A stretch of 63,989 nucleotides of DNA, filler included, from Octopus bimaculoides (GCF_001194135.2; 9 parts of 8 records of this genome joined end to end with filler, not necessarily neighbours in it); one strand, 5' to 3'. Shown: positions 37,011 through 59,420, counted from the whole stretch's first letter. The notes: a model not told the origin generated them from the letters alone. Translations and numbers: made by a program.

Positions 37011-37262
37011 GGGCATATGGCGTAGTGCTTAACAGTGCGGGCTACTAGCCCCAAGATTCCGAGTTCGATTCCAGGCAATGACCTGAATACTACTACTACT
37101 AATAATAATAATAATAATAATAACATCGAAAAATACCTTAGGAATAAGAACCCAAGTTCGAAATTTCCCCAAGACACCGGATGAAGGCTGGAGGGTATAT
37201 CAGCCAAAACGTTGTGTGAACAACAAACAAGATGAGGACCAATATCCGTCAAATGCAAATAA
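37011..37262 (+). mobile_element. Composite element: tRNA-like Pol III head + (ACT/AAT)n + hammerhead tail (copy 1, core mutated)
   Basis: A-box TGGCGTAGTGC (37018-28), B-box GAGTTCGATTCC (37061-72), microsatellite, then a tail about 93% identical (9 differences in about 121 bp) to 59263-59383; core is CGGATGA/AAAA instead of CTGANGA/GAAA. Confidence 0.75.
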
Positions 37263-37340
37263 AGAAAATAATGTATGATTTATGAATTTTGATATTTGAA
37301 TAGCCAGTTATGTACAAATTGAAACACTTAAGTATATATA

Positions 37341-37517
37341 TATTATGATTGACCGTTGACTGAACACTATTTAATTTTTTTTCTCCGTGTTTTTCTCCTT
37401 GTCTCCGTATTCTTTCTGTTGAAGAGCGTAGCTCGAAACGTCAAAGACTTTCCGTATTCCCGAGCGTCATACTAATATATACTTTTGTTATTTACACCAC
37501 CTGTCCTCGTCTGTTGT
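37341..37517 (+). mobile_element. Penelope-like terminal repeat with hammerhead-like motif (copy 2; motif at 37411-37447)
   Basis: Near-identical to 37-213; same TCTTT-CTGTTGA-A-GAGCgtaGCTC-GAAA-CGTC-AAAGA. Confidence 0.6.
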
Positions 37518-37689
37518 TNNNNNNNNNNNNNNNNNNNNNNNNNNNNNNNNNNNNNNNNNNNNNNNNNNNNNNNNNNNNNNNNNNNNNNNNNNNNNNNNNN
37601 NNNNNNNNNNNNNNNNNNNNNNNNNNNNNNNNNNNNNNNNNNNNNNNNNNNNNNNNNNNNNNNNNNNNNNNNNNNNNNNNNNNNNNNNN

Positions 37690-37744
37690 GATAGATAGAT
37701 AGATAGATAGATAGATAGATAGATAGATAGATAGATAGATAGAT
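37690..37744 (+). repeat. (GATA)n microsatellite
   Basis: Directly visible. Confidence 0.97.
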
Positions 37745-54500: not shown

Positions 54501-55808
54501 NNNNNNNNNNNNNNNNNNNNNNNNNNNNNNNNNNNNNNNNNNNNNNNNNNNNNNNNNNNNNNNNNNNNNNNNNNNNNNNNNNNNNNNNNNNNNNNNNNNN
54601 NNNNNNNNNNNNNNNNNNNNNNNNNNNNNNNNNNNNNNNNNNNNNNNNNNNNNNNNNNNNNNNNNNNNNNNNNNNNNNNNNNNNNNNNNNNNNNNNNNNN
54701 NNNNNNNNNNNNNNNNNNNNNNNNNNNNNNNNNNNNNNNNNNNNNNNNNNNNNNNNNNNNNNNNNNNNNNNNNNNNNNNNNNNNNNNNNNNNNNNNNNNN
54801 NNNNNNNNNNNNNNNNNNNNNNNNNNNNNNNNNNNNNNNNNNNNNNNNNNNNNNNNNNNNNNNNNNNNNNNNNNNNNNNNNNNNNNNNNNNNNNNNNNNN
54901 NNNNNNNNNNNNNNNNNNNNNNNNNNNNNNNNNNNNNNNNNNNNNNNNNNNNNNNNNNNNNNNNNNNNNNNNNNNNNNNNNNNNNNNNNNNNNNNNNNNN
55001 NNNNNNNNNNNNNNNNNNNNNNNNNNNNNNNNNNNNNNNNNNNNNNNNNNNNNNNNNNNNNNNNNNNNNNNNNNNNNNNNNNNNNNNNNNNNNNNNNNNN
55101 NNNNNNNNNNNNNNNNNNNNNNNNNNNNNNNNNNNNNNNNNNNNNNNNNNNNNNNNNNNNNNNNNNNNNNNNNNNNNNNNNNNNNNNNNNNNNNNNNNNN
55201 NNNNNNNNNNNNNNNNNNNNNNNNNNNNACGTATGATCGTTCGTTCATTCGTTCGTTCACTCGTACTTACGTTCGTTTGTTCGATCGTTCCTTTGTTCGT
55301 TCGTTCGTTCAATAGTTCGTTCGATCGTTGTTTCTAACGTACGTTCGTTTGTTCGTTCGTTCTTTCCTACGTACGTATGTACGGACGAACGTTCGATCGT
55401 TCGTTCGTTCCTAACTACGTACGTTCGTTCGTTCCTAACTACGTACGTTCGTTCGATCGTTCGTTCGTTTGTTCGTTCGTACCTACGTTCGATCGATCGT
55501 TCTTTCGTTCGATATTTCGTTCGTTCCTTCGTTATTTCGTTCGTTATTTCGTTCATTCGTTCGTACGTACGTTTGTTCGTACGTACGTTCGTTCCTTCCT
55601 TCCTACGTACGTTCGTTCGGTCGTACGTACGTACGTTTATTCGCTTGTTCGTTCGTTCTTTTGTTCTTTCGTTCGTTCGTTCGTTCATACGTACGTATGT
55701 TCACTCGTTCTTACGAACGTTTGCTCGTTCGTTCGTTCATGCCTTCATTCGTTCGTTCATGCCTTCATTCGTTCGTACGTACATACGTTCTTTCCTTCTT
55801 CCCTGGCC
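51562..55808. repeat. CpG-rich TTCG/TACG degenerate satellite with higher-order blocks
   Basis: Tetramer periodicity NNCG; rare marker words recur (TTAGATCGGTCG at 51876/52768/53849; TAGTTCAATCG at 51941/52845/53934; TTATTCCCTG at 52078/52964/53610); contains gaps and is bounded by gaps. Confidence 0.95.
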
Positions 55809-58800
55809 NNNNNNNNNNNNNNNNNNNNNNNNNNNNNNNNNNNNNNNNNNNNTTAATTAATTAANNNNNNNNNNNNNNNNNNNNNNNNNNNNNNNNNNNN
55901 NNNNNNNNTATACATATATACACACACATAAATTCTTTCATGCACAAACACAGACACATATACATATTCGTTTTAGTTCGCTCTATGTGTGATTATTCAG
56001 TAAGATTAAATTATACTTCATCTTTTTGATTACTTTAATTGATTTATCTGCTTTAAACAAATATACGTATGTACTTTATTACCTGTGTTTACTATTTAGA
56101 GTAAAGGAATTCATTTAAACATACATGCATACACAAGCAAGCGCGCTCTTTCTCACACACACACTCACTCACACACACATATATATATACACTTTGTGGT
56201 TGATGCTAGAAGCTCAAACTTTGTACTCGTGTGATATCAGATCATCTGCTTTATACCAGGGTACCCATAATCATAGCCACTGTTCTTCAGCAAAGTGAAC
56301 GAAGATAGAGTAACTGTCTGGAGGTGAATTCATATGGATTGTTTCCTATTGATTTTTTTTCAAGTGTATAGAGTCAATCGAACAGATTGTTGTATTGTTT
56401 GTCAATGGTCTCACCTCAGTAAATATAAATCTTATCTATAAACCGATTCGGAAAATATAGAACGGATTATCCATAATCCAGTCTGACGTGGTGTATTTGA
56501 AAGAATTGTTTGTAAACACTATATAGGAAGGGAAGTTAACATTGATAGAATGAAATTATTAAAATGAATGGAAGTAAACAATAGATTTATGTATACCTTC
56601 ATTTTTATTTTGCATATTTTCCGTTAGAATCATGAATCTATAGTGTATCAGCTATTACCATAAAAGGAATTGATGCTACATTGAAGCCAAAACAACGTGT
56701 GAAAATAAATAATATTCATTCATATGAGCTTTCAACTAGTTTTTATTCCTATACCAACAGAGAATATCTGCAGTACAGCATCGCACAACTTGATACTTTT
56801 ATATTGATAACGGGTCATTCTGCATTCGGTCAATACCACCTAACGGCCGAGACAACAAAGCAGCGTCTATATAGTCGCTTGACCTGAGAGAAATAGTAAC
56901 AACGTCTCATTCAAATAATACCCTTTAAAAAGAAAGAAAACATAGGATAATGTATATAGTTGTTTTTGTATTCAACAACGTTCATTCCCTACTATATCTC
57001 CACCGCATTGGGATAAATAGATCCACCACATCACTTTGAGATCCTGCTTGACTTTTATCGCAAAGAGGAACACCAGTTGATCTGACCGTGGAGAAAAACT
57101 TAAGTAATTAAATATAGTGATTTTTGCGCAACCGATTTACATCAATAATGCTATTTTGGTGATTTATTGAAATGACTATATTGATTATGTACCAAACAGC
57201 GGCAATTGTTCACTAAATCTAAAATATATTGCGAAGTGCATTTTTCTTTCGCAACAAACTAGACTGTAGCCTCATTGTGACAGATGCAAACATATTTTCT
57301 TTTCCCATGTAGCAAACGAAATATGAGACTGGTCAAATTGATTCCTTTTTCGGCTCACATAGAGGAGAGAGAAGACAACTCTTTATAAATGTTACAATCT
57401 GGCAACAGACAAAGTGCATTACAAAAGAAAAAATGTTTATTATGCATTACACTACAGATATAATAATAGATAACGTTATCCTAAATATATTAAGTCAGGT
57501 TATGACGTCTTAAATGCTTTTGGCCATACGCCTGTTGCAAGTGAGTTGACAGGAGATTCAAAACAAAGATGCTAACAGTGACACGGACTACCTATCTAAC
57601 CCAAGAATAAGAGCGCAACGCCGGCAGAAACTTATGAATCATTGACTGTACAATAATCTAGTTATTCTTTTACTGTTGGCTCTAAATTACGAAAGATTCA
57701 TGGATCCATCTTTCTAGATTAATGAGCTGTATCAGTATATGCCGGCAATTGAGCCAGACTGTATTATTTAACTTATTCGAGCATAGACAGAGATTTTTGA
57801 TAAACTAGTAGCACAATTAGAAAATAGTTTGTATCTACAAATTTACATTAGTCACATCATTTATGATGTACAAGCACGCATATGCATTTAAAGATCTTTA
57901 CGTACAGTAATCTACACACACACACACACAAACACAAACGCACACACACGCATAGATAGATGGTTGTACACACATATATATATATGATATGTATGTGTGT
58001 GTGTGTGTGTACACATATATAAATAAGATTATACATGTACAACTATACATACATATAAACAAGCTACTCATAGAATCCTGGATAAAAAAATAATATACGC
58101 GCATGCGAATGCGTATATAGCCGCACGTTCGCTGATTTATTAGTAAGCAATCTGGCACACATCGAGCCAGATATACGTACGAGTTAAAAATATGCATATT
58201 TAGCAAAAATAACACATGCATACAGCAGTGCATCCATATATGCACATACACACATCTCATGAATACACACGAAAACACAGGCATCCATATGAACATATAT
58301 ATGCATATATATACATGCATATATATGTAATGTGTGTGTGTGTCTGCGTTAGTGTGTGTGCGCGCGCGAGCGCGTGTGTGTGCTAAAATGTTCTTTTCGC
58401 TTAATATTCATATTTCATACGGGAGGTTATTTAAGAATAAATGAAATTAAAATATTGATTACTGATACAAAATTCTCAAAAGAAACAGAGATAAACTAAT
58501 TAGTTTCTAATTATCTTATTTTCCATTAACAAGTTTATATTATTACCTTAATTCAGTTTTCTGCATTAATGACGAATGATATATTTATCATGAAATTATA
58601 TATATTTTTGTCATATATATTTATGTATTTATTTTTCTTAATATGATATTTCGAAATACATTTAATATGTTTTCATATGTTTGAAAAATTATATTTTAAT
58701 AAAGAGAAATTGTTGGTAAACAAGTGTATGAGATGTGGGCGCGTTGTTTTGGCAATGTCCATCAAAGATTTACATCATTTTAACTACATCTTGATACACG

Positions 58801-59195
58801 AAGTAAGTAATGTGTACACAAACACACACCACACACACACATATATATATATATATACATGCACATATATATGTACACATACATATATACACATCTATAG
58901 GCATACTCAGAAACACATACGATATAAGATATTGTATAAGAAAAATAATTAACGAGGTATACATATATGCCTATAAAGATACAAGTGTGCGTGTATGTGT
59001 ATGCGTGTGCGTGCGCGCATCTGTATGTACATATATATATGTATGTATATATATGTATATATATATATATATATATATATATATATATATATATNNNNNN
59101 NNNNNNNNNNNNNNNNNNNNNNNNNNNNNNNNNNNNNNTTAATTAATTAANNNNNNNNNNNNNNNNNNNNNNNNNNNNNNNNNNNNNNNNNNNNT

Positions 59196-59420
59196 CACGG
59201 CAGCGACCTGATTAATAATAATAATAATATAATAATAATAATAATAATAATAGTAACATCGATAGGAATGAGAACCCAGGTTCGAAATTTCCCCAAGACA
59301 CCTGACGAAGGTTGGAGGGTATATCAGCCGAAACGTTGTGTTAACAACAAACAAGATGAGGACGAATATCCGTCAAATGTAAATAATGTAAATAATTCCT
59401 CATCTCTTAAATATAGAACT
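59196..59420 (+). mobile_element. Composite tRNA-head/(AAT)n/hammerhead element (copy 2, head mostly in a gap)
   Basis: Begins TCACGGCAGCGACCTGA, matching the end of the copy-1 head (TCCAGGCAATGACCTGA), then (AAT)n and the shared tail. Confidence 0.75.
59297..59342 (+). ncRNA. Minimal type I hammerhead ribozyme with intact core
   Basis: Stem I GACAC(59297-301)/GTGTT(59338-42); CTGACGA(59302-08)+A; stem II GGTTG-gagggtatat-CAGCC(59310-29); GAAA(59330-33); loopless palindromic stem III ACGT; GUU triplet, cleavage after 59337. Confidence 0.7.

Follow-up and report, generated by a model that had tools for sequence, protein, structure and literature searches.

An interspersed, high-copy octopus repeat begins with a tRNA-like head, followed by an (AAT)n spacer and then by a 3′ module that carries a minimal hammerhead. 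Judging from sequence, we consider it probable that this repeat is a SINE transcribed by RNA polymerase III (Pol III) and copied by the reverse transcriptase (RT) and endonuclease of a Penelope-like element (PLE), with uncut RNA as the likely template. Mobilisation of the Penelope type is favored because of an inverted, 5′-truncated partner, a one-sided tail, a flanking duplication, inversions across the family, and a matching picture in a sister family. There is about an even chance that a wider picture holds: a SINE–PLE pair parallel to the SINE–LINE pair, amounting to at least tens of thousands of copies in Octopus, in which the hammerhead-plus-tail module of ~130 nt shared by sister families is the minimal cis signal for the PLE RT. 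Such a pairing appears to be undescribed. A literature search, mostly at title and abstract level, returned no octopus hammerhead SINE and no Penelope-mobilised SINE; the search did not extend to Repbase, Dfam or the octopus SINE report of 1994.

Anatomy of the two copies

The two copies lie in a window of 63,989 nt, filler included, which joins nine parts of eight records of the Octopus bimaculoides genome (GCF_001194135.2). Their features are as follows.

Copy 1 unit, 36866–37285
36866–36877, + strand: left arm of a 12-bp flanking duplication, a candidate target-site duplication, inside a degenerate short repeat
36878–36932, − strand: inverted, 5′-truncated 3′ end of the element, including the terminal extension (“tail”); 90% identity over 51 nt to 59376–59426
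36933–37010, no strand: TG-rich filler that separates the inverted fragment from the head, read from the sequence
37011–37086, + strand: tRNA-like head, from boxes and read/contig depth; its 5′ end is the family 5′ boundary
37018–37028, + strand: A-box of the head
37061–37072, + strand: B-box-like GAGTTCGATTCC of the head, by reading of the sequence
37087–37123, + strand: (TAC)n/(AAT)n microsatellite spacer
37124–37273, + strand: body of copy 1, with the terminal extension absent at its end (sequence comparison)
37173–37218, + strand: minimal type I hammerhead, with core mutations at 37179 and 37206 relative to the family majority
37274–37285, + strand: right arm of the flanking duplication, a 12-mer identical to 36866–36877

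Copy 2, 59199–59422
59199–59211, + strand: final 13 nt of the head, 11/13 identical to 37074–37086; the remainder is in an N gap or truncated
59212–59254, + strand: (AAT)n spacer
59297–59342, + strand: intact minimal type I hammerhead (descriptor and folding)
59343–59396, + strand: AC-rich stretch and short AAATAATGT-type repeats 3′ of the hammerhead; short 3′ end region
59397–59422, + strand: optional terminal extension (“tail”), the first 9 nt of which can pair with 59354–59362 (fold z −1.12, not significant)

The copy 1 unit runs from duplication through an inverted 3′ end with tail and a forward copy without tail to the second duplication. This is the layout described for PLEs, which combines duplication, inverted partner and one-sided tail (PMC3846280, PMC8557442). 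The extension of ~26–35 nt is present in copy 2 and in the inverted piece and is missing from forward copy 1. Equally good 12-bp sharing was found in 12 of 5337 random pairs and in none of 4534 non-simple pairs. The inverted piece is not immediately adjacent to the head: ~75 nt of filler lies in between, and this filler has no second match elsewhere in the window. Because the duplication sits in a degenerate short repeat and this filler intervenes, the inverted piece and the head are possibly two independent insertions. Neither the inverted fragment nor the duplication flanking the whole unit had been reported in an earlier, sequence-only reading of this DNA.

That reading assigned a head to both copies, in the order head, microsatellite spacer, tail. 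The order is confirmed in copy 1, where an A-box and a B-box-like motif are present. The head of copy 2 is represented by its last 13 nt beside an N gap (59151–59194), so its A- and B-boxes are not visible. The tails are closely similar as proposed, with 123 of 134 nt identical (91.8%) rather than the ~93% first given. Runs of (AAT)n alone are a poor predictor of the element, since head and tail are both missing from 17 of the 20 such runs in the window.

The copy 2 hammerhead has the intact core that was originally read, with CUGACGA at 59302–59308 and GAAA at 59330–59333. Stem I comprises 5 bp (59297–59301/59338–59342), and an extra A at 59309 precedes a stem II of 6 bp (59310–59315/59324–59329). 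Stem III is a loopless, palindromic CG, and the predicted cut falls at 59337/59338. A minimal-hammerhead descriptor, composed after the motif had been seen, gave one match in the window and none in 150 block-wise dinucleotide shuffles. Minimal hammerheads of PLEs are marked by an extra base after A9, a G10.1–C11.1 pair and a palindromic 15.2/16.2 pair (PMC4209133), all of which are found here. The two core mutations of copy 1 were likewise verified, and the stem II difference between copies is indeed structure-neutral, as a C–G pair corresponds to a U–G pair. Folding z-scores of −1.25 and −1.15 are unremarkable, and the hammerhead stems reach a probability of ~0.1 in the fold of the whole copy 2 tail. 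Rfam returned no tRNA or hammerhead match for the element, its matches being microsatellite-driven or due to chance, and ARAGORN recognised no tRNA in the head.

The family and a sister family

To survey the family, two DNA runs (under two species labels) and two RNA runs, four of 24 listed, were mapped on a stretch of 471 nt. This yielded 15,715 and 17,236 contigs from the DNA runs and 6,610 and 5,212 RNA reads; named protein matches place the family in Octopus. SINEs are defined as short (<700 bp), non-coding, high-copy elements with a Pol III-derived head and a partner LINE RT (PMC3531059). With ~260–290 nt, no coding capacity, an interspersed distribution and more than 15,000 contigs per DNA run, the element falls within the size and copy-number range of SINEBase. 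Exact patterns of 21–22 nt from the element had no match in metagenome, viral or prokaryote contigs.

Majority letters across the family describe a better-preserved element than copy 1. The consensus keeps the hammerhead core, as the sequence-only reading required: U4 accounts for 98% and 96% of DNA depth in the two runs, and G12, which sits at a CpG, for 78% and 66%. Among the 40 of 57 difference rows listed, N7 is the sole variable core position outside a CpG (13% and 18%). In the head, the A- and B-boxes occupy tRNA-like positions, and majority letters restore A-box G18 (95–98%) and the D-stem; the T-arm pairs just partly.

The 5′ boundary of the family is sharp. Upstream of 37004, depth falls nearly to zero; loose ends concentrate at 37009–37012, where six of the seven rows listed end in the reverse complement of the first bases of the head. 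Of the 15 joints listed, four link a truncated tail on the opposite strand to the start of the head, each such joint being represented by one contig. Consensus agreement of the loose ends is only 0.44–0.67 and fades after 7–9 nt in DNA contigs, while one RNA consensus follows the inverted head for ~20 nt. We considered and set aside the explanation that these upstream letters are the 3′ strand of a tRNA acceptor stem, which is possible for the 7–9-nt cases and does not cover the RNA consensus. Loose ends at 37262 are due in part to mismatches of copy 1 itself. One contig joins the tail end at 37262 to the head start at 37009, forming a tandem joint.

Depth over the tail exceeds that over the head two- to threefold. 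The spacer is bridged by ~20–55 RNA reads per run and by three contigs, with reads being split at the spacer in mapping, and a head-to-tail search with a reverse-frame peptide scored none of 220 candidates. RNA reads map equally often in either direction, consistent with an unstranded library or with copies carried as passengers in Pol II transcripts. Among the rows listed, RNA ends and starts do not pile up and no RNA joint occurs, which is a weak test in fragmented libraries.

A sister family was detected through spurious translations among protein matches. Of its 150 matches, 18 have an inverted copy upstream and none downstream, and 13 contain in-frame tandem units of 38–43 codons. Its tail is bimodal, being present in 75 and absent in 27 of 102 matches, with frameshifts or stops explaining some of the 27. 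In stem II one pair changes from U–A to C–G, and the core is kept except at N7. Core conservation between the families is modest, at 12 differences over 68 nt, in matches that were chosen by similarity. The terminal extension is homologous across the hammerhead-bearing sister families.

Mobilisation and the role of cleavage

Two features of PLE insertions recur in these data. An inverted, 5′-truncated copy at the 5′ side with palindromic junctions is seen in copy 1, in the joints described above and in the sister family. An optional tail of 30–40 bp, often at one end only, is seen in the copy 1 unit, in copy 2 and in the bimodality of the sister family. As far as insertion anatomy is concerned, these observations support the original proposal that a non-autonomous element with a tRNA head relies on Penelope machinery instead of that of a LINE. 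The partner itself was not found: protein searches and 54 of the 128 window ORFs revealed no autonomous PLE with a matching tail, and neither the two copies nor these ORFs contain an RT plus GIY-YIG ORF. Pfam placed no family on tail-derived matches except for an unrelated RT. This sole RT match (P0154) looks, from its sequence, like a decayed RT of the LINE type that is split by an insert of the sister family. The idea that the tail encodes either terminus of a PLE ORF was also considered and rejected, given that the long proteins containing it are only host gene models and this decayed RT.

A plausible course of events would begin with Pol III starting at 37011 from the A- and B-boxes and reading through the element, which lacks a run of four T, into the flank. 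A PLE protein would bind the 3′ module, assumed to be a captured pseudo-LTR, nick AT-rich DNA and begin reverse transcription from either of two internal sites ~30 nt apart. Use of these two sites would account for the two lengths of 3′ end, short and long. The inverted 5′ partner would arise when the cDNA folds back on itself or when a second cDNA is primed on the opposite strand. A reconstituted PLE uses an uncut template and internal starts (PMC11167929). The hammerhead may be carried along as part of the recognised module. Its cleavage is likely to be rare, dependent on protein or dimers and not a required step, because cutting would part the promoter from the priming sites. The element would likely have originated from a simple repeat of tRNA ancestry whose (AAT)n tail received a PLE pseudo-LTR.

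The sequence-only reading had instead made self-cleavage, probably as a dimer, a step in mobilisation, and this part of it fared poorly. Copies extend 50–85 nt beyond the cut, which makes uncut RNA the likely template; the stems have low probability in the copy 2 tail; and in the one reconstituted PLE, cleavage is protein-dependent and dispensable for insertion (PMC11167929). We regard as unlikely a PLE-mobilised Pol III element that needs cleavage as dimers and, like non-LTR retrozymes and Sm-alpha, yields circles or permuted monomers. The intact majority core with N7 as a tolerated variable site speaks for such an element, as do the contig with the tandem joint, the sister-family tandems, which could fold as dimers, and the circular templates proposed for PLEs (PMC4209133). 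However, both window copies are dispersed monomers whose ends lie at the tRNA start and beyond the cut rather than at it, and the RNA ends listed do not pile up, weak as this test is. Furthermore, hammerhead mutants had no effect on insertion in vitro (PMC11167929) and eight of nine retrozyme dimers remained uncleaved in a 2026 preprint (bioRxiv 10.64898/2026.07.22.740005).

Two further explanations change either the partner or the role of the head. A conventional LINE-driven SINE, such as octopus OK, OR1 or OR2, with a dead PLE-derived hammerhead in its body appears quite improbable. In its favor, copies with the short end terminate in short tandem repeats, a trait of many LINE-driven SINEs. 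The head may resemble tRNA-Arg, as do OR1 and OR2, and a 10-nt word in the extension may resemble the end of the CORE domain, a segment of ~60 bp that follows the head in CORE-SINEs. LINE partners are also the rule for SINEs (PMC3531059), and RTE, CR1 and Dong-R4 LINEs have recently been active in O. vulgaris (PMC13282606). Against this stand the head-to-head inversions that duplicate the 3′ end, the one-sided extension and the tandems, which are PLE features (PMC8557442, PMC3846280) seen here and in the sister family, as well as the absence of a poly(A) tail and the homology of the extension across families. It is very unlikely that the element is a non-autonomous PLE derivative, and no strict SINE, whose tRNA-like head was captured as inert cargo and whose RNA arises from pseudo-LTR promoters or Pol II read-through. 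Captured DNA can be moved in trans by pseudo-LTRs (PMC3846280), and the excess of tail depth, the bidirectional RNA, the partial T-arm and the silence of ARAGORN and Rfam would agree with this. However, the family has its sharp 5′ boundary at tRNA +1, its majority letters restore the A-box and D-stem, and ordinary 5′ truncation also explains the higher tail depth.

Comparison with known systems

SINEs are defined as dependants of LINE RTs (PMC3531059), and a tRNA-headed family spread by Penelope enzymes would, if true, widen that definition. It would also reassign part of a large and mostly unclassified octopus SINE load; in O. vulgaris, where SINEs make up 11.6% of the genome, 893 of the 900 SINE families with recent activity are unclassified (PMC13282606). 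The natural insertions, short and numbering in the thousands, would allow a statistical view of the two priming sites, of inverted junctions and of how targets are chosen, and the shared module is a ready minimal template for an in vitro PLE assay. Comparing core with non-core positions across subfamilies could indicate whether the hammerhead is selected for catalysis or protein binding.

Among known octopus repeats, the tRNA SINEs OK, OR1 and OR2 (Ohshima and Okada 1994) are likewise tRNA-derived and high-copy, and the family described here may be one of them. This comparison is by description only: the accessible portions of the citing literature cite OR1 or OR2 as CORE-SINEs and mention no hammerhead or PLE link.

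EN+ PLEs (clades such as Penelope/Poseidon) and their pseudo-LTRs share with the octopus element the minimal hammerhead, the optional 30–40 bp tail, the inverted 5′-truncated partner, palindromic junctions, flanking duplication, and AT-rich or microsatellite targets. Unlike them, the octopus element has no RT/GIY-YIG ORF, is shorter than 300 nt and carries a tRNA-like head. Non-LTR retrozymes and other non-autonomous PLE derivatives such as MRC1 are also non-coding with PLE-related 3′ ends, and retrozymes have a type I hammerhead (bioRxiv 10.64898/2026.07.22.740005, PMC8557442). Retrozymes are tandem units with at least two hammerheads, whereas the window copies are single and tandems are found in the sister family. 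The terms “tRNA” and “Pol III” are absent from the text of the retrozyme preprint (bioRxiv 10.64898/2026.07.22.740005).

The nearest precedent is Sm-alpha of Schistosoma. In the accessible portions of the reports on Sm-alpha and Sj-alpha (PMC6765202, PMC2770079), these high-copy short repeats likewise unite a tRNA-related Pol III promoter with a hammerhead. They differ in being described as arranged in tandem, with a ribozyme that cuts multimers either in cis or in trans, and their hammerhead is canonical (PMC4209133), whereas that of octopus is of the minimal PLE type. The same portions name no PLE partner (PMC6765202, PMC2770079), in contrast to the octopus copies, which are dispersed monomers with the footprints of PLE insertion.

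Anatomy and abundance of the element

The element is real and occurs in high copy. Both copies in the window present the order head end, spacer and tail, and their bodies are identical at 123 of 134 nt. The features on which the analysis draws are as follows.

Features of the two copies and their flanks
37011-37273: copy 1, with tRNA-like head, (TAC)n/(AAT)n spacer and body
37018-37028: A-box of the copy 1 head
37061-37072: B-box-like motif of the copy 1 head
59199-59422: copy 2, of whose head the last 13 nt are visible, adjoining an N gap
36878-36932: inverted, 5'-truncated piece of the element 3' end, upstream of copy 1, including the terminal extension
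36866-36877 and 37274-37285: identical 12-mer abutting both ends of the copy 1 unit

The sequence-only reading had placed a tRNA head in both copies. This holds for copy 1, with its A-box and B-box-like motif, and is only partly true of the pair because copy 2 shows just 13 nt beside the gap. The head may resemble tRNA-Arg. ARAGORN and Rfam recognised neither the head nor the hammerhead. A second B-box-like word lies directly upstream of hammerhead stem I (37154-37168 and 59278-59292) and may be what is left of a further tRNA T-arm. Most (AAT)n runs in the window (17 of 20) have neither head nor tail.

Four of the 24 listed sequencing runs were aligned to 36860-37330 at 82% likeness. This interval is matched by 15,715 and 17,236 contigs in two DNA runs with two species labels, and by 6,610 and 5,212 reads in two RNA runs. 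Summed depth is in the millions, compared with 40-80 for single contigs; because it is not a copy number, family size is put only roughly, at tens of thousands of copies or more. There is almost no depth upstream of 37004, and loose ends are concentrated at 37009-37012; the 5' boundary of the family is therefore the tRNA start. The alignment splits reads at the spacer, and about 20-55 RNA reads per run bridge it. In three contig joints, sequence from the head end or the spacer lies between the head and the tail, and a peptide search across the head-tail junction scored none of its 220 candidates.

The family can be placed in Octopus, since the named protein records with translated tail pieces are those of Octopus sinensis and O. 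bimaculoides. Scanning public contigs with sequence patterns from the element gave no match. Four Octopus gene models (P0001, P0002, P0003, P0034) start with or consist of translated tail, and are either annotation artefacts or exonised copies.

The hammerhead and its transcripts

As the sequence-only reading had claimed, the minimal type I hammerhead of copy 2 is complete; its predicted cleavage position is 59337/59338. A descriptor composed after the motif had been seen matched once in the window and in none of 150 block-wise shuffles. Neither folding energy stands out (z -1.25 and -1.15), and the hammerhead stems have a probability of about 0.1 in the predicted fold of copy 2's entire tail. 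The family consensus has the conserved core, as majority letters reverse the core mutations of copy 1. U4 is the majority letter in the DNA runs (98% and 96%), as is G12 (78% and 66%), which is a CpG site like the CG of stem III. In the difference rows listed (40 of 57), variation at non-CpG core sites is confined to N7 (13% and 18%), a tolerated hammerhead position. The A-box G18 and the D-stem are also restored by majority letters.

RNA reads split evenly between the two directions, with no end pile-up among the rows listed, and are compatible with the presence or absence of Pol III transcripts or cleavage. At 37272, 818 and 683 reads in the two runs continue into the terminal extension, the optional last stretch of the element; at 37262, 1554 and 983 depart with no common continuation, partly due to copy 1's mismatches there. 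A stem III variant that lacks 3 nt beside the cut site appears in about 200 reads per run. Some 200 reads show an inverted junction of the tail with a tail fragment, where 4 nt are lost at that position. The high agreement of loose ends at 37213 and 37186 suggests that both come from few expressed loci.

Insertion anatomy and mode of copying

The copy 1 unit has the layout published for Penelope elements. The parts of PMC3846280 consulted give an inverted pseudo-LTR (terminal repeat), an optional 31-bp tail on one end, 8-10-bp duplications and palindromic junctions, and an excerpt of PMC8557442 gives Penelope-like elements (PLEs) a 30-40 bp tail, frequently on one end only. Here, about 75 nt of filler separate the inverted piece from the copy 1 head, and the terminal extension (about 26-35 nt; 59397-59422 in copy 2) is present in copy 2 and the inverted piece and absent from forward copy 1. 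Sharing equal to that of the 12-mer flanks occurs in 12 of 5337 pairs drawn at random and in none of 4534 non-simple pairs, with the caveat that the 12-mer lies inside a degenerate repeat. Among the 24 of 752 rows listed, six of seven pre-head loose-end rows finish with the opening bases of the head in reverse complement (agreement 0.44-0.67). The head start is joined to an opposite-strand truncated tail in 4 of the 15 joints listed (of 36), in one contig each.

The window motif has the features of the PLE minimal hammerhead as described in extracts of PMC4209133, where monomers do not cleave and multimers cleave weakly. In a reconstituted anole PLE, according to the sections consulted of PMC11167929, reverse transcription has two internal start points, separated by the length of the genomic tail; hammerhead mutants leave insertion unaffected, and the main substrate is uncut RNA, cleavage requiring protein. 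The octopus copies extend 50-85 nt beyond the cut site, without any four-T run, in line with a Pol III read-through transcript that would be primed internally while uncut. It had been proposed that the element self-cleaves, probably as a dimer, and borrows Penelope RT. Given the extension past the cut and the anole results, self-cleavage as a required step is dropped; the Penelope partner is retained, in keeping with the PLE-type insertion anatomy and hammerhead features. We consider it likely that this high-copy tRNA-headed element is copied by a PLE RT/endonuclease, probably from uncut RNA.

A second, unrelated repeat (37341-37518 and 37-213; 97.8% identical over 178 nt) has one copy beginning about 65 nt past copy 1. 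Its minimal hammerhead-like motif (37410-37447 and about 105-142) has U at position 6 as a core variant; stem I measures 5 bp and stem II 4 bp. The repeat probably represents the terminus of another PLE family.

Sister families and known systems

With an open frame of the tail as query, phmmer matched 175 proteins (E no higher than 0.001; 150 listed). We interpret them as related repeats that were translated spuriously; about 100 fall in one sister family. Among the 150 listed proteins, 13 contain in-frame tandem units of 38-43 codons, and a reverse-strand element translation lies upstream of the forward copy in 18 and downstream in none. The terminal extension is present in 75 and absent in 27 of 102 anchor-bearing listed proteins, with no intermediates, some of the 27 being frameshifts or stops. 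Sister DNA was decoded from overlapping frames (38, 5, 5, 3 and 3 instances). It differs at 12 of 68 nt, with a core identical except at N7 and a stem II pair changed from U-A to C-G at a CpG; this speaks modestly for conservation. At least two sister families with the same hammerhead-plus-tail module occur among P0004-P0152, one of them with the tandems.

No autonomous PLE partner was found among the protein search matches or the scanned window ORFs. P0154, which contains an RT domain, was rejected as a partner: it reads as a decayed LINE-type RT interrupted in frame by a short-ended sister-family insert. Elsewhere in the window, a weak Exo_endo_phos match (33709-34065, minus strand; E 0.0034, below the Pfam cut-off) is possibly a LINE endonuclease remnant, and 51500-54100 is a long degenerate tetranucleotide-like (CGAA/CGTA-type) minisatellite region with many overlapping ORFs.

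No such element is mentioned in the portions consulted of the octopus repeat papers PMC13282606 and PMC8967140, or in those of PMC7229834, PMC10886601, PMC4758252 and PMC4824008. The literature search found no octopus hammerhead SINE and no Penelope-mobilised SINE, Repbase and Dfam being outside the comparison. The family is probably already catalogued somewhere, possibly as the octopus tRNA SINE OK, OR1 or OR2. The new part seems to be the SINE-PLE pairing, and we give even chances that the element belongs to an undescribed SINE-Penelope pair.

SINEs are LINE-dependent by the SINEBase definition, as excerpted from PMC3531059. The window element is not an autonomous PLE; it would work like a non-autonomous PLE derivative that has a putative Pol III head of its own. 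Nor is it tandem, unlike non-LTR retrozymes as defined in the part consulted of bioRxiv 10.64898/2026.07.22.740005, whose tandem units recall those of one sister family. The nearest precedents for a tRNA head with a hammerhead are the Schistosoma SINE-like repeats Sm-alpha and Sj-alpha, which extracts of PMC6765202 and PMC2770079 describe as tandem and self-cleaving, in contrast to the dispersed copies in the window.
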